Shown here: positions 16,840-64,000 of the stretch, piece by piece
Layout: every line of letters begins with the position of its first letter
Numbering within the stretch: position 1 is the first letter of the stretch
Virus record (IMG/VR): IMGVR_UViG_3300035142_000030
Location: 12,722 to 76,721 of that record
From: a virus
Reading direction: 5' to 3' (one strand)
DNA: 64,000 nt
Translations under genes and position numbers: made by a program
The notes under the pieces: generated by a model
Told to the model about the DNA's origin: nothing
The model's input: the letters and a program-made list of their open reading frames with translations, nothing else
Database searches by the model: none

Positions 16840-17214
16840 ATGAATTTATCAAATCATCAATTTGAATTTCTAAAAGATTTGTCGTCTTTGATTGATTTTA
16901 TATCAAATGTCAAAAAAATAAAAATAACAGCTACATGGTTGCATAGACCGCAAGAAGTTCAACAACAATTATATAATGAAGGTTTAACAAAAACATTAGA
17001 ATCAAATCATTTGTATAGTTGTGCGATTGATTTAAACATTTTTATTGGAAATCGAATTTTAACAAATTTAAGAAAAAAAGATTTAACAAAAGAAGAAGTT
17101 TATTTGTTAAATGAAATTGGTGCTTTTTGGGAAAATTTAAATAAATTAAATCGTTGGGGTGGTTTTTGGAAATCTATTTATGACCCTGGTCACTTTGAAC
17201 GAAATGTTAAATAA
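16840..17214 (+). CDS. Endolysin, M15 family L-Ala-D-Glu peptidase
   Basis: R..E.Q..LY, SNH....AIDL, RWGGFW, DPGHFE motifs. Confidence 0.85.
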   Translation: MNLSNHQFEFLKDLSSLIDFISNVKKIKITATWLHRPQEVQQQLYNEGLTKTLESNHLYSCAIDLNIFIGNRILTNLRKKDLTKEEVYLLNEIGAFWENLNKLNRWGGFWKSIYDPGHFERNVK

Positions 17215-17235
17215 TATAAAAAAATATATAATGAC

Positions 17236-17445
17236 ATGAAAAACGCAATGAAGGATTGGATCACTAATATAGTAGCTATATTATTATGGGGAATTAGTAC
17301 ATATGCTTATTTCTTTACCGATAAAGAAATGAAGTTCTTAGTTTATATTGGAGTGATGATGTTAGGTTTTTCTTTTTTGTTTATAGATTCTAAACAAATA
17401 AGAGCATTAATTATTAAGTTTGTAAATAAGAGAATAGAATCATGA
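17236..17445 (+). CDS. Putative holin
   Basis: 69 aa, two TM segments, basic C-terminus, next to endolysin. Confidence 0.6.
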   Translation: MKNAMKDWITNIVAILLWGISTYAYFFTDKEMKFLVYIGVMMLGFSFLFIDSKQIRALIIKFVNKRIES

Positions 17446-18155
17446 AAATACTAACAAAACTACTAAACGTTTTGGCAATGATCTTTGTGGTAATCGGCAT
17501 CTATTCGACTATCATGTATTTTATATCCATAAAACCATTAAAAGAAAAACACAGTGAACTTGTGCAAAAGAAGCACAGGTTGGATAGTATAATTCAAAAT
17601 AATGACAAAACAATAAATATTTTAAGGGATTCTATAGAAGTAAAAGAAGCAGAAATAAGATATTCAGAAGAGAGGATAGGAGAATTAGAAACAGACATCT
17701 ATAATCTAAAGAAGAAACATAAAGAAAAACTACAAGAGTTAGAGGATTACACTTTAGAACAAGTTTTAGATTATATTTTAGATTATTATGATACAGATAG
17801 TACAGAAGCATGTATCAGAACCACAGATAAAGGTATTGAGATCGTCATACAACCACGTTTAGTGTATGAGTGGACATATACTATAGAAAAACTAGAAAGT
17901 ACCTCAAATGAACTTATATTAACCAAAAATAAAGCATCAGAATATTCTATATTAACAGAAGACCTAAAAGATAAGATTAATTTACTAGAAGGAAGGGATA
18001 GTGTGATGGTTAATTCGTTGGAAACGGCACAAGAAAAGAATGGAGTTCTTCAACAGTTGATTGAAAATAGAGATAAACGCATCAAACAAATCAAAACACA
18101 ACGTAATATAGTTGCAGGAGTAGCAGTGATAATAATAGTAATTTCTTTAATATAG
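17442..18155 (+). CDS. Putative spanin-like protein
   Basis: N-terminal TM, long coiled coil, C-terminal TM; last gene of lysis cassette. Confidence 0.55.
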   Translation: MKILTKLLNVLAMIFVVIGIYSTIMYFISIKPLKEKHSELVQKKHRLDSIIQNNDKTINILRDSIEVKEAEIRYSEERIGELETDIYNLKKKHKEKLQELEDYTLEQVLDYILDYYDTDSTEACIRTTDKGIEIVIQPRLVYEWTYTIEKLESTSNELILTKNKASEYSILTEDLKDKINLLEGRDSVMVNSLETAQEKNGVLQQLIENRDKRIKQIKTQRNIVAGVAVIIIVISLI

Positions 18156-18178
18156 TTTCTTTTTCATGATTAGTTTTG

Positions 18179-18212
18179 GCGTCTGGCTTTTAGGAGTCAG
18201 ACGTTTTTTTTT
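18179..18212 (+). terminator. Intrinsic terminator ending late operon
   Basis: GCGTCTGGCT..AGTCAGACGT stem followed by T-run. Confidence 0.8.
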
Positions 18213-18303
18213 ATGAATAAATGTTAATAAATACTTGTTTATGTCAAAATTTAGTTGTATTTTTGGATAAAATTAATAGGTAAAAATTATGAAAGATGAA
18301 ATT

Positions 18304-18436
18304 TTATACAACGTTAAGCTTATGATACGTTGCGTTTAATAACATAACTTTTTGATAAAAATAAAAATTATATAAAATGAATATACTTAACAAATTAGCA
18401 AAATGTAAGCAATGGATTATACGCATTGTTAGCAGT
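18304..18436. repeat. attC-like imperfect inverted repeat (array 1, site 1)
   Basis: ACAACGTTAAGCTTATGATACGTTGC ... GCAATGGATTATACGCATTGTTAG; same subfamily as 38548-38677. Confidence 0.7.
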
Positions 18437-18757
18437 AGTTTATCTGGGAGGGTTTTTTATGATAATGGTAAAAAATATATTATTCCTAAACACGTTTGGT
18501 TTAGCACAACTTTTAAAAAATATGGGAATGTACATAAAGCAAAGTTTGTTATCAACAAATACTCAAAGTCAGAACCAAAACGAAGAATATGTAAATACAT
18601 AGATGTTACAACTGGAACATATTTTTGTTTTGTAACCGCAAAAAGCAAAATAGAAGCACAAAAATTATTTTATAAGCAATTGTGCGAATCAGGTGTTATT
18701 TTAAATGAAGAAGAAGAATGGAATCAATTTTTTTTCGGGCATGAACAAAGCGAATAA
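18377..18757 (+). CDS. Hypothetical cassette protein starting inside the repeat
   Basis: KQWIIRIVSSS is encoded by the repeat arm. Confidence 0.6.
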   Translation: MNILNKLAKCKQWIIRIVSSSLSGRVFYDNGKKYIIPKHVWFSTTFKKYGNVHKAKFVINKYSKSEPKRRICKYIDVTTGTYFCFVTAKSKIEAQKLFYKQLCESGVILNEEEEWNQFFFGHEQSE

Positions 18758-18768
18758 AATTTGACATT

Positions 18769-19041
18769 ATGGATATAGTAGAACATGCCATTAATAGAAT
18801 TGAGTTTAATGAACACAAAATAAATGAATCTTTAAAAGAATTAAAAGAACTTAAAGATAATTTAATTGTAAAATATAAACATCCTGAAATTGATATTAAG
18901 AGATTACTTCAAGATGAAAAATATAGATACATTATAGCACTTAAATTATCGAAAAATAATGTAGAAACTGCTAAATTATTAGGAACTACTGAAAGAACAT
19001 TTTATAGAAAAATGAATGAATTTAATTTACATAACCAATAA
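18769..19041 (+). CDS. Fis-type HTH protein
   Basis: ALKLSKNNVETAKLLGTTERTFYRKM resembles a Fis/HTH_8 motif. Confidence 0.75.
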   Translation: MDIVEHAINRIEFNEHKINESLKELKELKDNLIVKYKHPEIDIKRLLQDEKYRYIIALKLSKNNVETAKLLGTTERTFYRKMNEFNLHNQ

Positions 19042-19053
19042 AAATTAGAAATT

Positions 19054-19263
19054 ATGAGACAAGAAGTAAAATTTAGAGCACCAATTAAAGTAATTGAAAG
19101 CGACAACTATTATTTGGTAATAGAGGATGCCGTTGGAGTTACGCATTATTTTCACAAAGAACATGATAATAAGTATGGAAAATTTAAACAAGGCGAATAT
19201 GATGGATGGAGTAAACAAATTCGTAGTTTAAATGATAATACGAAAAAATGTTGTGGATTTTAA
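19054..19263 (+). CDS. Hypothetical protein
   Basis: 69 aa ORF with AT-rich leader. Confidence 0.55.
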   Translation: MRQEVKFRAPIKVIESDNYYLVIEDAVGVTHYFHKEHDNKYGKFKQGEYDGWSKQIRSLNDNTKKCCGF

Positions 19264-19355
19264 TGTCCCGTTTAGAGGTATATCCCGAAATAAAAAAAAA
19301 ACTCGTAGAGTTTTGGGGGTACGGGATGGGTTGTGGGAATACCGAGCAAGCAATG

Positions 19356-19431
19356 GTTTATAACACAGCGGGATTTATGGGACGGTTTGGGGCTTTTGCC
19401 CCAAAATGGACTATGAAATCACAGTTAGGCA
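19356..19431. repeat. attC-like site (array 1, site 2)
   Basis: GTTTATAACACAGCGGGATTTATGGGACGGTTTGGGGC-TTTT-GCCCCAAAATGGACTATGAAATCACAGTTAGGCA; extra G on the sense strand. Confidence 0.75.
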
Positions 19432-19445
19432 TAAAATTTTTTGAT

Positions 19446-19646
19446 ATGGAATTTATAGTAGAATTAGAAGAAGGTGTTTATTTGGCTACTTGGTCTGGCG
19501 ACCCTGGGCGAACACTAAAGATTGAAAACGCACAAGTATTTGTCCGCGATAAAGATGCTGATAATGCTCTTGTTAGAGCCAGATATTATAGACCATTTAA
19601 GTATGCCAAAGTGCGAAGGCAAAAGGAAGGGTTGCGAAGCAGCTAA
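19446..19646 (+). CDS. Hypothetical cassette protein (MEFIVELEEG...)
   Basis: Likely true start is 19446, since the upstream part of the track ORF is repeat DNA; bounded by 13-bp IR 19424-19436/19660-19672. Confidence 0.6.
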   Translation: MEFIVELEEGVYLATWSGDPGRTLKIENAQVFVRDKDADNALVRARYYRPFKYAKVRRQKEGLRSS

Positions 19647-19664
19647 GGATGGGGGGGATTTTTA

Positions 19665-19760
19665 TGCCTAACGGTTTGGCTATGTTTAGTAGCCTAACCA
19701 CTAACTTTGAAATATTTACTAAATTTGCATAGGCTATTAAATATAGCTTTTGTTATAAAC
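19665..19760. repeat. attC-like site (array 1, site 3)
   Basis: TGCCTAACGGTTTGGCTATGTTTAGTAGCCTA ... TAGGCTATTAAATATAGCTTTTGTTATAAAC. Confidence 0.8.
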
Positions 19761-19799
19761 TTTTAAGGGGGCTTCTTCGGAAGTATCAGCAGAAGGGGA

Positions 19800-19874
19800 A
19801 CTTCGATAGCACAGTTGGTATGAGGCAACGACTTCAAACATCGTATATCGTAGGTTCGATTCCTACCGAATGAC
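19800..19874 (+). pseudogene. Degenerate tRNA-like sequence, apparent anticodon TCA
   Basis: TAGC..TGGTA D-region and GTAGG-TTCGATT-CCTAC T-arm; anticodon and acceptor stems imperfect. Confidence 0.4.
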
Positions 19875-20024
19875 TTAAAACGAGGCGTTACTGCACGCCT
19901 ACCCTCTGCCCCCTTAATTGTTTTATAACTATTAAATAAACACACCTGCATTAAAACTATTATATTTAATATAAATTTTAATATAAAAATCAAGAATTAC
20001 CATAAAATTAGGGGAAATTTTTAT

Positions 20025-20032
20025 TATATTTG
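20025..20032 (+). promoter_or_regulatory. Bacteroidota -7 promoter element
   Basis: TATATTTG immediately before 20037. Confidence 0.55.
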
Positions 20033-20036
20033 TATT

Positions 20037-20390
20037 ATGAAAACACTAATATTATTTCTATTATTATTTCCTATCTATTCTTATTCGCAACAGGTAGGAG
20101 AAAAACTAACCCAAAAAGAATCATTAGCTCTTGTAGAAAAAGATCATTGTAACAAGTACTATTATACCTCAGAAGATAGTATCATTACTATTAGGACAAG
20201 AAAGTCAGATGATCTTATATGGGATATAGACTATCAAGTAAAGAGGACAAGTAAACTTTCATGGGTAACACAATACACTCAAATAGGAAGAAACGTATTC
20301 TATGATGAAGGAGATTATTATTTTGTATTTATTATAGGAGAATATTATTTAATACAGATTAGGAATGCGGAGAAAGTGTCGTCCTTATAA
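20037..20390 (+). CDS. Secreted hypothetical protein
   Basis: Signal peptide MKTLILFLLLFPIYSYS-Q. Confidence 0.6.
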   Translation: MKTLILFLLLFPIYSYSQQVGEKLTQKESLALVEKDHCNKYYYTSEDSIITIRTRKSDDLIWDIDYQVKRTSKLSWVTQYTQIGRNVFYDEGDYYFVFIIGEYYLIQIRNAEKVSSL

Positions 20391-21054
20391 TTATGTTAAT
20401 GTACATGAAATTATTAAAAGTGATAAGGTTTATGTGCCTAAGTTGAAATGGAAATTTGAATATGAAAGCTATTTTTTAAGTGGTGATAGGCAGCAAATAT
20501 TGGATGCTATGTTTCAGCCCAAAAGTAAGGTTGTAAGAACAAATACAAGTTTTATCAGGAAGTTGGTTATAGAGATAGGGATTCAGGAGTTAAAGATTCG
20601 TAAGATAGTAGAAGGTAAAACAGCTAAAGGGTATCCTAAGATTATAGTATCTTGGCATAAACATCCTGGAAAGTATATGATAGATGGGGAGGAGTTTAAT
20701 AATTCTAGCGCTAGCAATAAGGACAACATTTATGATACTATAGACTGTTTGCATTTAGTACAAGATAAAGATAGAGCTTCTTTTGCAAAATATTGGTTTA
20801 GACCATTTACTAATTCATTTTCAAGGGAAACATTATTAAGAATCCCTAAGGGAAGGAAGTTTAAATGTATAGTTGCTCATGTAGAAGAAGCTTTTAAGGA
20901 AAGAGACAAGCAGATGTATTACAAACAAGGGAACAGAATAGGGCAGCCAATAGTATTATTAAAGCCAGAGATAGTTAAGGTTTATCCATTAGAAACTCCC
21001 AATAAGGATATAAAAATAGATTATTTTAAATTATATAAACCTATAAAATTATAA
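20365..21054 (+). CDS. Hypothetical protein
   Basis: 229 aa ORF in operon. Confidence 0.55.
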   Translation: MRRKCRPYNYVNVHEIIKSDKVYVPKLKWKFEYESYFLSGDRQQILDAMFQPKSKVVRTNTSFIRKLVIEIGIQELKIRKIVEGKTAKGYPKIIVSWHKHPGKYMIDGEEFNNSSASNKDNIYDTIDCLHLVQDKDRASFAKYWFRPFTNSFSRETLLRIPKGRKFKCIVAHVEEAFKERDKQMYYKQGNRIGQPIVLLKPEIVKVYPLETPNKDIKIDYFKLYKPIKL

Positions 21055-21057
21055 AAC

Positions 21058-21399
21058 ATGGAACAAATAATAGAGTATGAAGCTTTAGAAAGGAAAACAA
21101 TATCTCGTGTTGTATGGTTAGACATGGATAGAGTGTTTTTTATTTTTAACGATGATTCTTTTTGTATTATTAAAGGAAGCGGGTGGGAAGAACCATATGC
21201 TGAAATAGATACAAATGAATATAATTTAGAACCTTACGAATGGAACTATAATGATTTATATAAATTAGGATTCATATCGAAAGAAGAATATAAGAAAATA
21301 GCTAATAATGCTAAGGATATGCACAGAAAGAGAATAGAAGAAGCAGATTTAGAAAAAATAAACATACTAAAACAAAAATACCCACAATATTTTAAATAA
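21058..21399 (+). CDS. Hypothetical protein
   Basis: 113 aa ORF in operon. Confidence 0.55.
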   Translation: MEQIIEYEALERKTISRVVWLDMDRVFFIFNDDSFCIIKGSGWEEPYAEIDTNEYNLEPYEWNYNDLYKLGFISKEEYKKIANNAKDMHRKRIEEADLEKINILKQKYPQYFK

Positions 21400-21400
21400 C

Positions 21401-22684
21401 ATGGATACACAATTTTTTACAATAGATGAAATATCAGCCAAAAACTTTAAAGGGCTTAAAGATTTTAAAGCTGACCTAAATAATGTTTCTGTAATATTAT
21501 CAGGATCAGAAGGAGTAGGCAAGTCTAATATCTATCATTTGGTTGAAGGATTAAGAAAATTTAAAGGAGCTAAAATTACTAAAGGGGAAAAAGAAGGTAG
21601 TGGAGAGATCAGCATAAGTAAAGGGGACACTAACTATCGATTCTGCTTTAGTTTTACAGAGGACAATAAACATAAACTAACAACATATGTAGATGGAGAA
21701 GCTAAACCGATAACAAAAGCAAGGCAAGCTTATATTTTAGAACAACTATTAGCTCCAACATTTGATATTGATGCCTTATTAAACTCTTCAGGACAGAAAC
21801 AAGCAGAAATGGTAAAAGAGGCTTTACGGATAGATACTGTAAAAGAAGAGGCATACTACCAACAGAAGTTTGAAGAAAGAAGAGATTTAAAAAGGGATTT
21901 ATCTAAAAATCCTAAACCAGAAGAAGTGCCGGAAGCTAAAGAGGTAGACATAAATGATCTTTTAAAGCAGAAAAAGGCGATAGAAGAATTTAATGCTGAA
22001 CAAGACGCTAAACAAAAGATTATAGATTTCTATTTATCTATGAGTAAGAAGTTAGATAAACAGATTACCGATCCTGGTTCAGATGCTTACCTTAAACATA
22101 TAGCTACCTCTAAAAACATGCATAAAGATATTATTAAGTTTATCACAGAAAACATTTTCAAGTTAGATCAACCTAAAAAACATAAAACGCTTGAAGATGT
22201 AAATAGAAGCCTTGAGGGTGCGCAAAAGACTAACGAGAACGCTTTAGCTTATAAAAAATATTTGAGCTCTATAAAGGCTTTTAATGAGCTTAAAATAAAA
22301 GTTGATAAAGCAGAAGATGAAGTAAAGGAGGCTAGAGAAAGATTGTTAAACAAGATGAAGCAAGTGGACATTCCTGTGGACGGGCTTGAACTAGATATGC
22401 AGATGTCAGATAGTGGAAAGATAAGCACTACATTAACTTATAATGGGCTAGAGATGAACGATGCTAATATTAATACGAGTAAAAAATACGCCATTGCAGC
22501 TTACTTACAAATGAATTTATTTAAAGAAGGGAATCTAGGAGTATTCCATGTTAATTCTTCATTTATGAGTAATTCTACATTGCAAGATATAGCAAGGGAG
22601 TGTAGAAGATTAAATTTACAATGTCTTTTTGAGATAACTAGTAGAAAAGCTAATGAACCACTTAAAGTTGAATCTATTTTATAA
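21401..22684 (+). CDS. SMC/Rad50-like P-loop ATPase
   Basis: ISAKNFKGL, Walker A GSEGVGKS, central coiled coil. Confidence 0.75.
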   Translation: MDTQFFTIDEISAKNFKGLKDFKADLNNVSVILSGSEGVGKSNIYHLVEGLRKFKGAKITKGEKEGSGEISISKGDTNYRFCFSFTEDNKHKLTTYVDGEAKPITKARQAYILEQLLAPTFDIDALLNSSGQKQAEMVKEALRIDTVKEEAYYQQKFEERRDLKRDLSKNPKPEEVPEAKEVDINDLLKQKKAIEEFNAEQDAKQKIIDFYLSMSKKLDKQITDPGSDAYLKHIATSKNMHKDIIKFITENIFKLDQPKKHKTLEDVNRSLEGAQKTNENALAYKKYLSSIKAFNELKIKVDKAEDEVKEARERLLNKMKQVDIPVDGLELDMQMSDSGKISTTLTYNGLEMNDANINTSKKYAIAAYLQMNLFKEGNLGVFHVNSSFMSNSTLQDIARECRRLNLQCLFEITSRKANEPLKVESIL

Positions 22685-35379: not shown

Positions 35380-35545
35380 GCCGTAAATTTTACATACCGC
35401 TAACAAGCGGTCATAGTTAATAAAGCCAATTAAGTTTAGTTCGTTGTAGGTTGCGGTAGTGGGTGGCTTTACTAACCATACCGCATCTACGTTACAGACA
35501 ATTGCCCGCACGGCATTCCGCACGGGCTATCGCTCACAACCCACT

Positions 35546-35902
35546 CTAAATTTTGTTTAGAATTTGTTCCAACGCCCAATACTCTGGATTTGCAAGAGCA
35601 GTAACTACATTATTAATATCACAAATACTAATAATCAGCCAAATACATAAAATGATTGCAAGTATAACAATTGCAATCCAATGTCCAACTTCAGTATCAT
35701 TATCATAGCATTTTTGATAATTTTTAGCAAACCATTTTATGTATCGCACATATGGTATAATTAAGAGAAAAGAAATAATGATTAAGGTAATTCCCACAAA
35801 TGCATCAATAGGTGCTTGCTTAATCATAACTCCCCACAAGTATTCGGTCGTTGTACCAAGCTTACTTGCTAAGCTTTCTAATAATGTTGTTAATTCATTC
35901 AT
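35546..35902 (-). CDS. Membrane protein (cassette)
   Basis: LASKLGTTTEYLWGVMIKQA, two TM segments, NPEYWAL; bounded by a 14-bp IR. Confidence 0.7.
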   Translation of the reverse strand: MNELTTLLESLASKLGTTTEYLWGVMIKQAPIDAFVGITLIIISFLLIIPYVRYIKWFAKNYQKCYDNDTEVGHWIAIVILAIILCIWLIISICDINNVVTALANPEYWALEQILNKI

Positions 35903-36280
35903 TTTAATATAATTTAGTTAAACAAAATTTTCTAATGTCAATTGTCTGTAACAGTCGCCTAAATACAGCATTCGTCGCAGCTTCGTATCAAATTGGTTCA
36001 TATCGTATTGAAACCCTAAGGCAACTATCTGTAACTACTAAATACAAGCCAGCGAGACAAGCTCGCCATCGTGTATTTAGGCGACTGTTAGATTCCATAC
36101 TCCCACGGCATTCCCACAAACCCCGCTACGCCCCACCGCACAAAAACCATCGTATGAAATCTAATGGTACGGCAAGTAGTACCACTCGCTCAATACCATT
36201 TACGTATCTGAATCTTATTACTTCCTCCAACGTACAGAATCTAACTGTCAAGTCAGAGGAAAGTAATTTTAGAACTCATT

Positions 36281-36505
36281 CTAAACAATACGTTTACAGC
36301 TTAATTCCCAATGTACTTGTTCGGCAACTTTTAATCTACGAACTGAACTTTTTCCAGTTTCAGGTAATTTGCCTTCATTTAACCATAATAATATCATTTG
36401 TATAAAGTTGCCTGCTGGCAATTCTACTTTTTGACCTTTACCATCTATATAATAAACTGTATCAGTCAATTCGCTGTAAACTAATTCTTTTTTTTGCTCA
36501 ATCAT
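36281..36505 (-). CDS. Hypothetical protein within hairpin loop
   Basis: 74 aa ORF between inner arm (36242) and right arm (36537-36572). Confidence 0.6.
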   Translation of the reverse strand: MIEQKKELVYSELTDTVYYIDGKGQKVELPAGNFIQMILLWLNEGKLPETGKSSVRRLKVAEQVHWELSCKRIV

Positions 36506-36675
36506 TTCTATATAATTTTATCTGTTAATAAACAATGTTCTAAAATTCCCATCCACTACTTGCCGTACCATTGTAACTCAATTGACAGCTCTCCATCCGC
36601 ACAAGGCTTCCCATCCGCCCCGCAAAATACCAAAGCAATTGAGTTACAACGCTCGGAGTTCATTCGATGTAAAAA

Positions 36676-36930
36676 TTATGAAACACCGAGTTTATGAGCT
36701 TCTTCATCAAATGCAATTTTTATATTTGTAATTTCAGTTTGAATTTCTAATAAAAGTTCATGAAATTCTTGTTGCTTATCTTCAATTTGTTTGTCAGCAA
36801 ATTGCATTTTTGAAATTATGTTCTCCTTATAAGCATAAGCAGAGTTCAAATCATTTTTTAATTTTGTGTGCTTAGCTTTAAGAACATCAAGTCTATTTAA
36901 GTAATTACCATACTGTTCTTGAAAATTCAT
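36676..36930 (-). CDS. Coiled-coil hypothetical protein between outer and inner arms
   Basis: 84 aa ORF. Confidence 0.6.
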   Translation of the reverse strand: MNFQEQYGNYLNRLDVLKAKHTKLKNDLNSAYAYKENIISKMQFADKQIEDKQQEFHELLLEIQTEITNIKIAFDEEAHKLGVS

Positions 36931-37121
36931 AATTTTTACCTTTCTATATTTAAGTTTATAATGTTCGATACGTCACAGCGTACAACTACGTGTAATGCAG
37001 AATTGCTACAATCGAATGATGCCGATTTACGGCTTTACTTTGCCTTGCGGCAAATCGCCGCAACTCAGCATACACTCCGAGCGTTATGCGTAAAAATACC
37101 CGCATCCTAGTTCGCTAACGC

Positions 37122-37217
37122 TCACCCATCCGCATCCTCCCACTTATCAATATACAATTTTAGCTTATAAATAAGTATTCCTATTACAATTCCGATTCCT
37201 ATTAATATTAAATTCAT
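37122..37217 (-). CDS. 31-aa membrane peptide cassette (MNLILIGIGIVIGILIYKLKLYIDKWEDADG)
   Basis: Only ORF within the 16-bp IR 37083-37098/37225-37240. Confidence 0.5.
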   Translation of the reverse strand: MNLILIGIGIVIGILIYKLKLYIDKWEDADG

Positions 37218-37374
37218 ATCCAAATATTTTTACGCATAACACCAGAGAAAATATACCGTCCCGCAGGAGACGTTCTCCAGTATCTGCAAGTTTATATTCC
37301 TAATATTTCTACTCATAACTAAAAAATCATAGCACATTAAAATCAAAACTCTGTGTTTAATAAAATAAAGCCAA

Positions 37375-37725
37375 TTAATATATATTCTTTCTACCCCTGT
37401 CAGCGTGCAATGGTACTAAATGATCACACGAACCGCAAAAATGTTTAGCTTTAGTCTCCCAGTAAATTCCTTCAGAATGTGTATCAAAAAGCGAATTACA
37501 ATTGCTACACATCTCAATATGGTCTGGTAGTAAAGGAAAATGTTCTTGTAAATAATAAATTATTGCAAACGCTTTTTTAGCTGTCATCTTTGGCTGATGC
37601 CCACGCTTAAAAGAAAGTTGTTCAGGTAATTCACCTTGTAAAAAATTGTAAAATTCTTCTATCCATTCAAGGTCTGTATCAATCCTCTGATCATTATTTT
37701 TAAGCAATTTTATTTCATTGTACAT
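37375..37725 (-). CDS. Zn-finger hypothetical protein within hairpin loop
   Basis: CSNC ... CGSC; enclosed by TAAAATAAAGCC/GGCTTTATTTTA IR. Confidence 0.65.
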   Translation of the reverse strand: MYNEIKLLKNNDQRIDTDLEWIEEFYNFLQGELPEQLSFKRGHQPKMTAKKAFAIIYYLQEHFPLLPDHIEMCSNCNSLFDTHSEGIYWETKAKHFCGSCDHLVPLHADRGRKNIY

Positions 37726-37865
37726 AAGGCTTTATTTTTAATTAGTACTAAATTTATAATCATATTTTACCTGTAATTTCATCAAGTTTCAATCAATGTT
37801 TTAATTTTACCGTCCCATATTTTCTCTGGTGTTAGAAAACATGCCGTTTCGAACGGACGCAAAAA

Positions 37866-38147
37866 TCATTTTGCTTTCTTATATTTAGAGCCTTTACTAT
37901 TACAAAAATCACATATTGCATTGTTAGGTTTGTTAGATATACATGAACTGCAAAATTTCCATTTTTGCTCATGTTTTCTAACGGTTTCACGTTCGTTTGA
38001 TATTAAAATTTGATTGATAAAGTCATTCAATTGGACTATAGCGTATTCAACAGACAACATATCTAATGTGTCTTCATCTCCAATTGTATCAAGTCTATCC
38101 ATTAATATCTTACGTATTCCATCAGTATAATCTTTTTTATGTTTCAT
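37866..38147 (-). CDS. Hypothetical protein reading through a repeat arm
   Basis: NERETVRKHE is encoded by outer arm 37970-37992; Cys-rich tail. Confidence 0.55.
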   Translation of the reverse strand: MKHKKDYTDGIRKILMDRLDTIGDEDTLDMLSVEYAIVQLNDFINQILISNERETVRKHEQKWKFCSSCISNKPNNAICDFCNSKGSKYKKAK

Positions 38148-38320
38148 AATATCAAATTTTAATTATTAATACTAATTTAGTTTATCAATTCTCAACGTCA
38201 CGATTTTCTAACCAACGTTTATGCTTAATTAAAGCTATCAAACGATGCTCCGTTAAAGCTTTTCTTGCGTTTCACGCAACCGCTTTAACAAAGCATACAC
38301 GTGAAACCGTTAGAGTGCAT

Positions 38321-38608
38321 TTAATCCAAGTGAATAAGCATTTCTCCCCACGCACTTCTACCTTTCACTTTCGGTAGTGATGTGTAGTGTAGTGTCATTC
38401 CTGTAAATTCACACTCTTTGTTATTTAAACTTTTTTTAACCATCCAGTCTTTTGCTTCTTTCCTTATAATATCATCTTCATTGTTTCGATGCCAGCCCAC
38501 GCTAATTATCAAATTACCAATTCTAATTTTACTAAGTGAAAAACGCACTCTAACAATAGATAAAATCCATTGCTTAAAATGTGCTAATTCGTTACGTAAG
38601 TATTTCAT
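38321..38608 (-). CDS. Hypothetical cassette protein starting inside the repeat
   Basis: MKYLRNELAHFKQWILSIVRVR is homologous to the N-terminus of 18377. Confidence 0.6.
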   Translation of the reverse strand: MKYLRNELAHFKQWILSIVRVRFSLSKIRIGNLIISVGWHRNNEDDIIRKEAKDWMVKKSLNNKECEFTGMTLHYTSLPKVKGRSAWGEMLIHLD

Positions 38609-38764
38609 ATCAATGTTTTTATAAGTTTGAAAATTCAGTTCATTAAATCGCAACGTATCTTATCAGAGCCGTTGCACACAATGCCCCATCTAGGGGACGT
38701 GCGACTCGCTATCGCTCCTGTCGCACTCATTGTGTGCAACAGTTTGGCGTTAGCTTGTAAATAA

Positions 38765-38941
38765 TTATTCGCTCAGTACTTCTAAACTATAAGATGATAC
38801 ATAATCAATCTTTTTACCAACTATTACAACTGCATACGGTATATCATCAGCTCCCCGCACGTATCCATCAATGTATCCAACATCTCCAACCTTAAACATC
38901 ATATGTTGGTATTCTTTAATAATTTTAACTTTTGTCTTCAT
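38765..38941 (-). CDS. 58-aa hypothetical protein (MKTKVKIIKEYQH...GYIDGYVRGADDIPYAVV)
   Basis: Clean ORF between duplicated TGTGCAAC cores; below the track size cutoff. Confidence 0.55.
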   Translation of the reverse strand: MKTKVKIIKEYQHMMFKVGDVGYIDGYVRGADDIPYAVVIVGKKIDYVSSYSLEVLSE

Positions 38942-38976
38942 AATTATTTATTTAGTTATTTGTTAATTTCTGCTTA

Positions 38977-39147
38977 CTAGATGGTGCACAATGTGCAACT
39001 AGCGTTTATGCGTAATTGTAATAGGCAATTTCCAATCTCCCAGTAACTTGCGCCTAAACGTTCCAATATCATTTCAGCTTTCTCAAAGCTCCAACTTTTA
39101 TAACATTGATAAAAGTTCCCTTTATAGGTATACATTATATGAATCAT
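38977..39147 (-). CDS. Hypothetical protein ending in a repeat arm
   Basis: MIHIMYTYKG...LGASYWEIG; tail QLRINASCT is encoded by the arm. Confidence 0.5.
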   Translation of the reverse strand: MIHIMYTYKGNFYQCYKSWSFEKAEMILERLGASYWEIGNCLLQLRINASCTLCTI

Positions 39148-39532
39148 AATTTTATATTTAAAGTTTGTACTAAATTTTAACAATACCCTAAAAATCCTTC
39201 CCATATCTTTCGGAGTGTTATGGCTCAATTTCGCTACGCTCTACGATGACTTCATTTAATTGAGCCATAACGAGACAACGTATGAAGTACAGGCTCAGTG
39301 TACTATATTAATTCTATTTTAATTTATCCGCTCAACTAGAGCATAACTACATATAAGCGTAATACTATGAGCCTTACTTCAAAGCTCTCAGAATATTTCA
39401 CCGATAAAAATCGGCTCATATTCCTACGCTTATACGTTGTCTCGTTAGTAGCAAGCGGGTTCAGTTCTCGTATCAAACATTGTGCGTATTTGAAAGAAAA
39501 AGAAAAGCCCCGCCCGCTTTTGGCAAAGCCAA

Positions 39533-40147
39533 TTAGGATAAAGCTGCAAGTAGTTCAGTTACCCACTTATTTGAATCTTCACATCTTTTCAATTCTGCAT
39601 TGTGTTCTTTTGTGTGGTATTCAATATCCCAGTTGGCATCTGCAATCATATCCTTTCTAATATCAGCAGCATTTATGTTTTCTAATTGAGAATCTATCTT
39701 GCTTAACTCATCATCGTGGTACTTTGTGTCTCCATCGTGGTCAATAGTTGTCACTATCTGTTCAATCATAAATTTAGCAATTCCTTCGTGGTCTTTTGTT
39801 GGTGGTTTGAAATCCCTTGCTTTAATTAAAAACTCATCAAGTTTAACCCTTGCTTTTTTTATTTCCTTAATTCTTTCGGTGTGATAGGTTCTACTTTCTT
39901 TTATCTGTTTTTTGCGAGAGGCAATTATTTCAGAATCGGTAAGTTTCTCAGCTTGATTTAATTTTTCATTAGCTGTTTTTAACGCTTTAATATGGTAATC
40001 GCTCGGCGTTCTTGGCACGTACTCTTTATTCATACTTTCATCTCTCATATGTATAGTTGCTCCAAAAGCTCTCATACATTGTTTTGCAAAATCTTGGAAT
40101 GTTTCGGTTGTGCCGTCAATAATTCCTGCTGTGTAACCTGTTGGCAT
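39533..40147 (-). CDS. Conserved phage hypothetical protein (MPTGYTA-type)
   Basis: 204 aa helical; MPTGYTAGI..TFQDFA..CMRAFGA. Confidence 0.7.
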   Translation of the reverse strand: MPTGYTAGIIDGTTETFQDFAKQCMRAFGATIHMRDESMNKEYVPRTPSDYHIKALKTANEKLNQAEKLTDSEIIASRKKQIKESRTYHTERIKEIKKARVKLDEFLIKARDFKPPTKDHEGIAKFMIEQIVTTIDHDGDTKYHDDELSKIDSQLENINAADIRKDMIADANWDIEYHTKEHNAELKRCEDSNKWVTELLAALS

Positions 40148-45859: not shown

Positions 45860-47040
45860 TTAATAGTTAATTTTAGTTGATTTAAAGGCCTGTATTTAAT
45901 CGTACAGGCTTTTTTAATATAATATACCTCATAGGATATAAAATAGCCTTAAAAGCCTTAAATTATATCTTTTCGGGTATAATTACACGCATAAACTAGG
46001 AATTAACAATAATTATAACTATATTTGTAACTCTATTAGTAATAGTACCCAGAACCAAATAACAATTAATATGAATTAACGAGATGTAGACCGGCCTGGC
46101 GATAAATCCAGAAGAACACACAAGAAAAGGAATTATAAAAACAAGTGTTAAACTTATTTTTATTGTACAAATAGCCTGGTTTAAATTAGATCAGGTTATT
46201 TTTTATGCTTAAAGATTAAGTTTATTAAGTCTAAATAAACGTTAAAAGCCTAGATATTAAGATTTAAACCCTCTGAGAATTGAATATTTGAAACGCTCAT
46301 GCACTATGATACTGTACAGATTACTCTCAAGGACTTAAATATTAAGAACTTAAACAAATAACACGCATAAACCATAAATCAAACATAAAATCCTTTCAAG
46401 GATATTACATATATAAGAAAGAGACAATAACAAAAAAAAACATCAATATAATAAATAATAAATACCAGCAAACTATTTAACAATTATTATATATTTCTGT
46501 TTGCTGGATAGAATAGAGTAAGTATTTGGACAGGAAATAGATATAAATAGTATTTTAACTCCGTTAGAATTGGATATTCATATCTATTGTGTAATATGAT
46601 AGATGATATTATAAAGAATCTGTATTAAATAGATAGAATATAGTGTTATTTCAGCTAAAATATACCTTTTTGACTCACATTTTTAGTTAAAATATCATAT
46701 TTAATAATCAGGCACTTATATAATTTTGGTCTCAGTTCCACACAGCGCGAAGACCAACTTTTGAAGATTTAATATACCTCAGTTATTATCTTAGATATAT
46801 AGAGAGGATTTTAACAGGATATTAGTATTATTAAAGAATGGGCAAGCTCATCAACTAATAATATATAGCATACTACTATGTTATACCAAGTGTTTCAAAA
46901 TGGAACACTTTTAGGTAAAATAAACCCAACCTATTTTTTAGGTTGGGAACAAAAAAGGCTGTAAGGCTTATAAATACTAAAGAATTGTGAAAAACGATAA
47001 ATTGATTATTTGTCCAATAATTAGTATTTTGTTAATATGA
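45860..47040. other. Long AT-rich non-coding region (candidate origin or genome-end region)
   Basis: No ORF of 60 aa or more; terminator-like hairpins ~45886 and ~46172; repeated ACGCATAAA. Confidence 0.4.
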
Positions 47041-47050
47041 TTATGAGACA

Positions 47051-47647
47051 TTATAGCACATCAGGCTTGAACTCAAAGATATATGCTTTATGCCTAGTTT
47101 CATCTTTTAAATATCGATTAATTGTTTTGCGATCTACACCGAAATGTTTAGCCGCATCGACAACAGAATCAAACTGTAATTGTTCCCTGGTTTGTATGTG
47201 TGTGGTTAATATAGGTTTTTTCTTTGCATTTGACATTTTTATGCGTGTTTCAAGGTTGTGCGGAGGTTTTATTTTGCCTTTCCAATAACTATTCCTTTGT
47301 CCTGTCTGAAAGGATTTTAATATGTTTTCGCTATGAGTTACCCACTCTAAGTTAGATATATGATTATTTAACTTATCGTGGTCAATATGGTTAACCTCTT
47401 TCTTATATTTATTGTCGCTATATCCCTTGAAAGTGATTAATACGAGCCTATGAGCGAAGAATATCTTTGTGCGTGGTTTATCTCTGTTCTCTTCTGTCTT
47501 CTCTTGCGTAAGATGGTATAATATATAGCCACAACTATTTAGTTGAGGTTTTAAGAATCTTTGCTTTCTGATAGAATACACATCACCGTTTTCATATATA
47601 TAATATAAGTTTTCAAATCCTGGTAACATTATTGTTTTTCTTTTCAT
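47051..47647 (-). CDS. NUMOD4-HNH homing endonuclease with NUMOD3/NUMOD1-like tail
   Basis: GFENLYYIYENGDV, HRLV, VNHIDHDKLNNHISNLEWVT, FDSVVDAAKHFG. Confidence 0.9.
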   Translation of the reverse strand: MKRKTIMLPGFENLYYIYENGDVYSIRKQRFLKPQLNSCGYILYHLTQEKTEENRDKPRTKIFFAHRLVLITFKGYSDNKYKKEVNHIDHDKLNNHISNLEWVTHSENILKSFQTGQRNSYWKGKIKPPHNLETRIKMSNAKKKPILTTHIQTREQLQFDSVVDAAKHFGVDRKTINRYLKDETRHKAYIFEFKPDVL

Positions 47648-60215: not shown

Positions 60216-60254
60216 CTATTTATTTATACCCAAAACGGATAAAGAAATTTTTAT

Positions 60255-60365
60255 TATATTTGTGGCATGATTAAGTATCTCGTAAATTATATTGTTTTTA
60301 TTTTGCCGAAAGGCTAATTATATAACCAGGTGGAACTACGAGATACTTTATCCATCTGGTTTTTC
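60255..60365 (+). promoter_or_regulatory. Promoter plus leader ORF and terminator/antiterminator
   Basis: TATATTTG; leader 60267-60317; stem AACCAGGTGGA/TCCATCTGGTT plus T-run; 12-bp IR 60273-60284/60337-60348. Confidence 0.5.
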
Positions 60366-61281: not shown

Positions 61282-61321
61282 TATTTTTTTTAATATATTT
61301 GTTAATTTAAAATATTTTTAT

Positions 61322-61459
61322 TATATTTGCAGTATGAAAAGATTTTGGTGTTTATATAGTTATTCGTTTTTGCTTTTCGCTATACAGGCGAGAGAATAGA
61401 ATAATTGTATATATACTATAATTATTGTTTCCTCGCCAAAAGCGGGGATTTGTTGTTTT
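61322..61459 (+). promoter_or_regulatory. Promoter plus leader peptide (61334-61399) attenuator before tRNA cluster
   Basis: MKRFWCLYSYSFLLFAIQARE; terminator TCCTCGC/GCGGGGA plus T-rich tail; GGCGAG can pair with CTCGCC. Confidence 0.6.
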
Positions 61460-63213: not shown

Positions 63214-63888
63214 ATGAATATACAAGAGATAGACGGAAGCGTATTTAAGTATAATCCTACAAGCAAGAATGCTCTTAAACAACTTCAAAAGGATTATCCT
63301 GAATTTGGAGAGTCACATTTGAAGGCAGGGTTAGGAAGCAATTCTATAGAGTATGACTTAGAACCTTTTAGGGAGAATGTTCTTAAATACGTTATTCTCT
63401 TGTATGATAAAAATTCACCTTTATGGAGCACAATACAAGATTTTAATCATAGAAAGATAACAGCCTTACAAATGGCAGGGTTTAAAGTTCAACCTAATGG
63501 GCAATTCTCTGTAGAAGTACAACAAGGAATAATTATGGGAAAGAACTCTGTAGTAAATAATATGATTGTGAGATACGTGTTCTTATTTAACAATCCTAAG
63601 TTTGTTATGCTTGTAGGATTGTTACAGGTATATATAAATCTATTTACAAAAATACAAAGTTCTAGCCCTAAAAAAGAAGAGCTTCTAATGTTTAAGCAGA
63701 CAGCAGAAGATATTGATAAACTAACTGCTGATATATTTGGGGGAAAAGAAAACCAAGAGTTAGAGAATACACTATACGAAGTTCTAAACATGAATAAGAT
63801 GTTGTTTAGACCAGAACATGTAGCAGAAAGAATAGCTAACGGAGAAGAACCAACTAACGCTAAGCCTTATGAACAAAGCGCAAGCTAA
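63214..63888 (+). CDS. Hypothetical protein, possibly terminase small subunit
   Basis: YVILLYDKNSPLW; overlaps the next gene; position after tRNAs. Confidence 0.4.
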   Translation: MNIQEIDGSVFKYNPTSKNALKQLQKDYPEFGESHLKAGLGSNSIEYDLEPFRENVLKYVILLYDKNSPLWSTIQDFNHRKITALQMAGFKVQPNGQFSVEVQQGIIMGKNSVVNNMIVRYVFLFNNPKFVMLVGLLQVYINLFTKIQSSSPKKEELLMFKQTAEDIDKLTADIFGGKENQELENTLYEVLNMNKMLFRPEHVAERIANGEEPTNAKPYEQSAS

Positions 63889-64000
63889 AGTAAAATATCA
63901 TGGTACAGAATATAGAAAATATGTAGATAAATATCAAGATGTAGACGAATACCAATGGTTAAATACAGATGATATAGACCTACATCCTATACGCACAAAG
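63869..64000 (+). CDS. 5' part of next gene (possibly terminase large subunit), truncated by window
   Basis: ATG 63869, MNKAQAKVKYHG..., open to the window end. Confidence 0.35.
   Translation, partial: MNKAQAKVKYHGTEYRKYVDKYQDVDEYQWLNTDDIDLHPIRTK

Follow-up and report, generated by a model that had tools for sequence, protein, structure and literature searches.

A small phage gene enclosed by private inverted repeats and hairpins as a possible unit of an integron-like cassette array

The locus described here lies in a phage record of 76,721 bp (31% GC) that originates from a wetland metagenome, carries 127-bp direct terminal repeats and is 100% complete according to CheckV. The window, i.e. 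the whole stretch of DNA that was analysed and to which all coordinates refer, comprises 64,000 nt and corresponds to bases 12722-76721 of this record. In size, GC content, short terminal repeats and the presence of a tRNA cluster, the phage resembles the Pachyviridae phages of Flavobacteriia, a comparison taken from Bartlau et al. 2021 (PMC8776804). Its virion and lysis genes stop at an intrinsic terminator of the late operon (+ strand, 18178-18205), which consists of a 12-pair stem followed by a T run and is located 1.2 kb 5' of the cassette. The initial annotation had placed the cassette right after this terminator and a new promoter region; this needs correction, because three small + strand ORFs of 126, 90 and 69 aa intervene.

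The center of the cassette is a 66-codon gene (+ strand, 19446-19646) that is enclosed by an inner pair of inverted repeats on the same strand, GTTAGGCATAAAA (19424-19436) and TTTTATGCCTAAC (19660-19672), which are complementary at 13/13 positions or, when extended to 16 nt, at 94%. The spacing is 9 nt between the left arm and the ATG and 13 nt between the stop codon and the right arm. Outside the arms lie two + strand hairpins. The imperfect stem of H1 (19372-19420) measures about 19 bp, includes three + strand G.U pairs and one bulged A, and is capped by an apical GGGGC-TTTT-GCCCC (DNA fold z = -2.6), while H2 (19679-19748) has an 18-bp stem with three G.U pairs on the + strand, no bulge and a 34-nt loop (DNA fold z = -2.1). 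Beyond the hairpins follow the outer left box GTTTATAACA (+ strand, 19356-19365), which ends in the core TAAC, and the outer right box TGTTATAAAC (+ strand, 19751-19760), with the 9-mers GTTTATAAC (19356-19364) and GTTATAAAC (19752-19760) inside them. All four motifs listed in the initial annotation (19424, 19660, 19356 and 19752) were recovered, and the complementarity proposed for the outer cores amounts to 10/10 for GTTTATAACA/TGTTATAAAC, which enclose the inner unit and both hairpins. The elements are hence nested in the order outer box, hairpin, inner box, gene, inner box, hairpin, outer box.

The enclosed gene, referred to as the cargo, encodes a 66-aa member of a widespread family of small phage proteins (IVELE.GVWLAPW.GDPGRTL...) with a beta-beta-beta-alpha-beta fold, for which AlphaFold returned a confident model (pLDDT 86.7). 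At E<=0.001 we retrieved 409 homologues, and the family spans about 60 residues and begins at Met1 (19446). Because the family starts at this methionine, the left arm is located in a leader and the frame 19263-19445 is noncoding; on the same ground, we rejected the longer 127/132-aa reading (19248/19263-19646), which is suggested by a frame that stays open from 19248 on and, at 127 aa, by public gene callers (P0001). The protein falls into no Pfam, PHROG or PADLOC family, has no match in a PDB fold search, and a word-index protein search returned no homologue. Among 50,697 phage records, its only match is gp059 of Cellulophaga phage phi18:3, which lacks an enclosing repeat. The GC content of the cargo is 0.41 (GC3 0.30), compared with 0.21-0.30 (GC3 0.10-0.21) for the neighboring genes.

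Perfect inverted repeats within 1.5 kb were counted over the whole 76.7-kb genome, using block shuffles as the null. Those of 13 nt occur 15 times versus 4.45 times in the shuffles, those of 14 nt 9 times versus 1.05 times, and those of 16, 18 and 19 nt 3, 2 and 1 times versus 0.15, 0.05 and 0 times (for 16-19 nt together, 6 versus about 0.2). Overall, repeats of at least 13 nt are about five times over-represented in this phage, and the inner pair is not a product of chance. The outer pair, which is AT-rich, is not significant alone, its 9-mer being found 3 times versus 1.28 expected, a count that 15 of 100 shuffles reach. We then scored the 21 repeats with at least four G/C for a common end: 14 of them carry GTT/AAC within the first 6 nt of the outer end, versus a background of 14%, and 9 pairs abut. 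The inner pair belongs to this GTT/AAC-ended class, and the only part of the boxes that is conserved genome-wide is (T)AAC / GTT(A). In a chain of repeats on the - strand (35491-39447), successive helices share the tetranucleotide TAAC or GTTA. One could still regard the repeats as chance matches that AT-rich DNA produced next to an unremarkable small gene, given that about 4 inverted repeats of 13 nt within 1.5 kb are expected at such a genome size and that the count of the outer 9-mer stays inside the shuffle range, but this is very improbable: the excess holds at every length of at least 13 nt, the core is enriched as described, the ORF ends lie 9 nt and 13 nt away from the arms, and a homologous gene elsewhere shows the same arrangement, with no repeat above 7 nt around 14 other homologues.

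This homologous gene, L002, is the only one of 14 fetched IMG/VR loci encoding cargo homologues that has an enclosing repeat. It is located on a contig of 40% GC (G001) between GTTAGAAATCT, 10 nt upstream of its ATG, and AGATTTCTAAC, 6 nt past its stop codon, which form a repeat of 11 nt versus 13 nt in our phage. For the 14 other homologue loci, phi18:3 included, the best flank-to-flank repeat is 4-7 nt. The cargo homologue is the only protein that G001 and the phage share; in these two otherwise unrelated phages, the arms around the same gene keep GTTAG/CTAAC and differ with compensation elsewhere. G001 carries a small chain of abutting repeats of its own, and the flanking hairpins are absent from it (z = 0.36 and -0.5). 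Together with the outlying GC content of the cargo, the enclosed homologue in G001 makes the gene look like a travelling unit. A paralogous shell in the phage itself (- strand, 37083-37240) agrees with such a unit: its arms, GTTATGCGTAAAAATA and TATTTTTACGCATAAC, show two compensated pair differences from those of the cassette, the ends adjacent to the arms are similar, and the shell holds a different cargo, a 31-aa membrane-type ORF.

Immediately downstream of the cassette is a module without a gene (+ strand, 19752-19929) that is closed by a 19-bp interrupted stem, GTTATAAAC..TTAAGGGGGC / GCCCCCTTAA..GTTTTATAAC (19752-19772 / 19908-19929). The outer box at 19752 consequently has two potential partners, pairing perfectly with 19356-19365 or, with one bulge, with 19920-19929. 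The module contains a structured RNA with a tRNA-like core (19807-19866) that scores 25.2 bits against the Rfam tRNA model, below the cut-off of 29; Rfam 15 gave no other match in 19200-20050 or 35400-39600, and no known RNA family was recognized in these intervals. We rejected a true tRNA, a tmRNA and a copy of a host attB as identities of this region, as it was called by neither ARAGORN nor Rfam and its word is absent from GTDB genomes.

Contigs from lake-water, soil and seawater metagenomes match a 20-kb stretch around the locus only at 19668-19931, 19684-19912 and 19679-19929. Over these 229-264 nt they show 5-9 differences (about 97% identity), and outside the matches they do not resemble the window. 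Seven of the differing positions are in H2 (19702-19727), all within its loop, and one is in a hairpin loop at 19892. The shared block consists of H2 plus the module 19752-19929. On the left, where breakpoints are resolved only to about 10 nt, it begins no more than about 10 nt away from the CTAAC core in the right arm, and it ends at the TATAAC of GTTTTATAAC (19920-19929). Because the block combines H2 with the tRNA-like module between unlike flanks, H2 appears to remain with the downstream DNA while its left neighbor changes. Unrelated breakpoints, which the initial annotation had named as the observation speaking against an insertion, were not seen, since the block ends of all three foreign contigs lie within about 10 nt of the CTAAC/TATAAC cores.

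We considered whether the gene is a cassette with terminal inverted repeats of its own that moved by another route, e.g. by short-shell recombination during co-infection as proposed for PeSL motifs, by MITE-like transposition or by an endonuclease-driven event, in which case the outer GTTTATAAC/GTTATAAAC pair would be coincidental or belong to the tRNA-like module. G001 has the same gene in equivalent arms without the flanking hairpins, the paralogous shell contains another ORF, the outer pair is insignificant alone, the box at 19752 can pair with 19920-19929 inside the conserved block, and the phage encodes an HNH homing endonuclease (47051-47647), all of which would suit such a route. We nevertheless judge it quite unlikely. 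The arms show no target-site duplication (flanks caca / ggtt) and only two related shells rather than a multi-copy family were found by genome self-comparison, so that the locus does not conform to a MITE or other terminal-inverted-repeat element. Likewise, this route leaves the conserved core and the chain of abutting helices unexplained. PeSL promoter/stem-loop cassettes of T4-type phages (Arbiol et al. 2010, PMC2839356; Comeau et al. 2014, PMC4122927) are similar in that small accessory phage genes are flanked by stem-loop motifs proposed to mediate modular shuffling; there, a single conserved promoter-terminator motif serves homology recombination, whereas the arms here are private to each module and only the 4-nt core is common. 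In line with this, the genome self-comparison revealed no repeated border motif, and the arms are unique except for the one paralogous shell.

A second alternative is that the locus represents RNA architecture only, without any site-specific DNA insertion. It would then be the 3' part of an early/middle transcript folded as a four-way junction of the outer stem, H1, a long-range stem looping out the cistron, and H2, followed by a tRNA-like processing or stability element, and compensatory evolution would maintain the stems because they serve in the processing, stability or translational control of the mRNA. Several features fit this picture. The whole 591-nt stretch has z = -4.0 as RNA, and both H1 and H2 have three + strand G.U pairs. 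Toward the ATG, four U.G pairs prolong the inner stem and three that of the paralogous shell, the L002 arms differ yet still pair, which amounts to covariation, and the block found in other metagenomes varies only in hairpin loops. In addition, the sense strand of structured spacers folds 11-20 kcal/mol better than the antisense strand, in + as well as in - gene blocks, a difference that in coding controls is about 3 +/- 6 kcal/mol per 150 nt. Such a bias would suit RNA function as well as an ssDNA substrate that is used in a strand-specific manner.

Long-range processing stems that enclose genes in transcripts are well known from rRNA operons and from the RNase III sites of T7; as in these, the arms here border a functional unit on its sense strand, and the hairpins close by contain G.U pairs. 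To our knowledge, however, processing stems have no conserved tetranucleotide at the helix ends, form no chains of helices that share a core, and are not linked to the presence or absence of genes between genomes. An RNA role gives no reason why nearly every helix should end in GTTA/TAAC or why neighbors should share this tetranucleotide, nor why the gene with its arms is the sole item common to the phage and an unrelated contig. The long-range arms are strictly Watson-Crick with abrupt ends, unlike typical evolved RNA helices, which points to DNA-level sites. A 13-bp stem that stops 9 nt ahead of the ATG should also hinder initiation, a step for which the host group relies on unstructured leaders. 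Finally, no Rfam family matches the locus, and a search of the complete phage genome found no gene for RNase III. On balance, RNA architecture as the whole explanation seems unlikely, if a more serious contender than the alternatives above; if correct, it would mean that perfect long-range stems loop out single cistrons, which would be an unusual design.

The arrangement of the boxes suggests an insertion instead. The initial annotation had noted that a self-complementary site reappears once the cassette and one hairpin are taken out, and as an observation this holds. When the right arm, H2 and a G are joined to the left arm, as in a circularised unit, the product folds as DNA with -21.4 kcal/mol, compared with -12.0 kcal/mol for the standing site; the outer left box, H1 and the outer right box joined together give -14.9 kcal/mol, compared with -11.9 kcal/mol. 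Partners thus fold better when swapped, which fits the signature of a crossover within the core between two folded sites, although this test is not independent of the repeats themselves. The site-specific insertion postulated in the initial annotation is thereby upheld in part: the nested order, the folding of swapped partners, the travelling gene and the block ends near the cores speak for it, whereas neither an empty allele nor a recombinase was found. Neither an empty allele nor an excised circle was seen in the material covered, which included the assembled contigs of the source run at the locus, where no alternative joint is present.

Relatives of the locus proved scarce. Megablast of 17000-21500 and tblastn of the 427-aa, 484-aa, 116-aa and 74-aa proteins gave no match among 50,697 phage records, two flanking proteins scanned against IMG/VR found nothing, and a single-protein scan of metagenome contigs returned no relative. 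Exact-word scans with the right arm, H1 and the tRNA-like element, as well as one gapped stem pattern, had no hit in IMG/VR, JGI metagenome contigs or GTDB genomes.

Based on these findings, we lean with slightly better than even confidence towards a working model in which the locus is one unit of an integron-like, hairpin-bounded cassette array in a virulent phage of flavobacterial type. We infer the insertion event, and with it propose the strand used, the crossover point and the kind of enzyme. Each unit would combine a folded site, in which boxes of the type ..TAAC and GTTA.. flank a hairpin, with a cargo that has a private closing stem of the form GTTA-x ... x'-TAAC, and units would be joined through strand exchange within the 4-nt core. 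Because the exchange would take place within these four nucleotides, neighboring helices would come to share a core and each box would stand beside a non-cognate partner. At the present locus, one unit with the 66-aa gene may have entered a resident site with the boxes GTTTATAAC and GTTATAAAC, and insertion into this site would account for the present nested order.

Regarding the orientation of the unit, we mildly favor an arrangement with the hairpin upstream of its cargo over the canonical one. The inserted unit would then be 19365-19672 (H1, gene and closing stem), with the outer left box as its proposed left boundary and a crossover at TAA|C; the former empty site would have been GTTTATAAC-H2-GTTATAAAC, and the next unit would be 19673-19929 (H2 and the tRNA-like RNA). 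H1 plus the gene is favored as the inserted unit because the shared block, H2 plus the tRNA-like RNA, ends near two TAAC cores. The nearly identical direct repeats GGTTTATAAC (19355) and GTTTTATAAC (19920) fit the partition into 19365-19672 and 19673-19929. Alternatively, in the canonical integron orientation, the gene and H2 could have been inserted together at G|TT. The model further predicts that a recombinase is provided in trans by the host or a co-infecting phage, or else that the array is now frozen: no tyrosine recombinase candidate was detected at E<=0.1 with PF00589 in six frames of the complete 76.7-kb genome and contig G001, and no serine recombinase in the complete phage genome. 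If true, the locus would be a compact example of virulent phages swapping single accessory genes at defined hairpin sites without an enzyme of their own, and for both orientations the model states explicitly which empty site and which excised circle should exist. A strongly conserved tRNA-like RNA would moreover stand out as the cargo of a cassette.

Qi et al. 2023 (PMC9892861) found clusters of attC sites without an integrase (CALINs) in virulent phages, among them the Polaribacter phage P12002L, and showed that IntI1 recombines such sites. Similar to integrons and CALINs, single small ORFs at our locus have folded sites between them, 75 nt (19356-19430) and 93 nt (19666-19758) in length and bounded by ..AAC/GTT.., and as in a CALIN the phage lacks an integrase: no gene for an IntI tyrosine recombinase stands beside the array. 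We compared the sites with the attC definition, i.e. R'' = RYYYAAC and R' = GTTRRRY, an imperfect hairpin of 57-141 nt with an unpaired spacer and extrahelical bases, and crossover at G|TT. GCCTAAC (19666-19672) and GTTAGGC (19424-19430) fit the attC boxes exactly and correspond to the classical inverse-core and core consensus, whereas TTATAAC (19358-19364) and GTTATAA (19752-19758) do not; the spacers between box and hairpin measure 3-6 nt at both sites. Furthermore, the boxes pair best across the far side of the neighboring cassette, as expected after a crossover in the core.

Other features set the array apart from integrons. Complementarity extends 9-15 nt past the 7-bp box, resulting in perfect private cargo stems of 10-19 bp; the hairpins fold on the coding strand and, to judge from the block boundaries, the hairpin probably stands ahead of its cargo. 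In the validated phage CALIN of P12002L, by comparison, long repeats are found at chance level and form no chain. On this model, the array would work like an integron but differs from a typical CALIN in its long private stems, its folding on the coding strand and, probably, a reversed orientation of the units. A broader proposal, to which we give somewhat less than even credence, is that Flavobacteria-type phages run an integron-like gene capture of their own, with long private stems, coding-strand hairpins upstream of the cargo and a non-IntI recombinase acting in trans, and that the locus preserves one insertion beside a neighboring cassette whose cargo is the tRNA-like RNA. If so, phages would possess their own variant of integron-type ssDNA-hairpin recombination, one that obeys different structural rules.

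Elsewhere in the genome, ORFs are present in modules of both the GTTA..TAAC and the TAAC..GTTA type and, unlike in integrons, genes lie inside hairpin loops or read through the core. The idea that genes reading through the core do so with GTT in frame 0 was dropped: it applies to 3/3 genes, which is not significant as a GTTAG core leaves only two open frames. One junction falls within a 93-aa gene, and the only homologue of that gene matches just from the arm onward.

The hairpin to the right of the 66-aa gene (H2, 19679-19748) and the adjoining tRNA-like RNA module form a conserved block of ~260 nt (window 19668-19931), in which H2 is accompanied by a structured RNA whose tRNA-like core lies at 19807-19866. 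This block is present at ~97% identity in metagenome contigs from lake, soil and sea, and all differences are confined to two hairpin loops. The block had no match to any Rfam family, and when parts of it were sought as exact words in IMG/VR, JGI contigs and GTDB genomes, there were no hits.

On the minus strand, the shell at window 37083-37240 has arms and adjacent ends that are paralogous to those around the 66-aa gene (19446-19646), and encloses a 31-aa hydrophobic ORF (MNLILIGIGIVIGILIYKL...). The 8-mer GGGACGGT occurs three times (window 19379, and 37255 and 37809 on the minus strand) against 0.2 expected, each time on the sense strand; in the 18-nt repeat 37237/37817, a copy lies just inside each of the two arms.

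Some genes read through cores or module junctions. At window 18384-18432 (plus strand) and 38550-38598 (minus strand), two of them share a homologous upstream hairpin (GATACGTTGCG) and an N-terminal leader (..L..LA..KQWI..IV), which runs in-frame into a GTTAG core in both genes, while the bodies beyond the core are unrelated. A 93-aa gene (37866-38147, minus strand) crosses the junction of two repeat modules at 37977-37992. Its sole homologue, the 72-aa P0152, has the arm-encoded SNERxxVRKHEQK in common with it, as well as the C-terminal CxxC..CxxC part, and differs at the N-terminus.

The unrelated 21-kb phage contig G001 (40% GC), which carries a homologue of the 66-aa gene, has a chain of its own, made up of private repeats that abut one another (loci L016/L017, 1059-1919 and 3550-3779); one arm in it, at 1906, can pair with either 1688 or 1735. 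In the window, an HNH/NUMOD homing-endonuclease gene (47051-47647, minus strand) is flanked by three 12-13-nt inverted-repeat pairs (46360-46423 and 47238-47408) in colinear, not nested, order.

The motif GGGGAAATTTTTATTATATTTG, similar to the Bacteroidota -7 box, is repeated at window 20014-20043, 60244-60263 and 61314-61340. Because it ends only ~3 nt upstream of the ATG at 20037, it suggests leaderless or near-leaderless transcripts. Finally, window 63874-64000 repeats the genome's first 127 bases, which lie upstream of the window; this 127-bp direct terminal repeat shows that the virus record is a complete linear genome.
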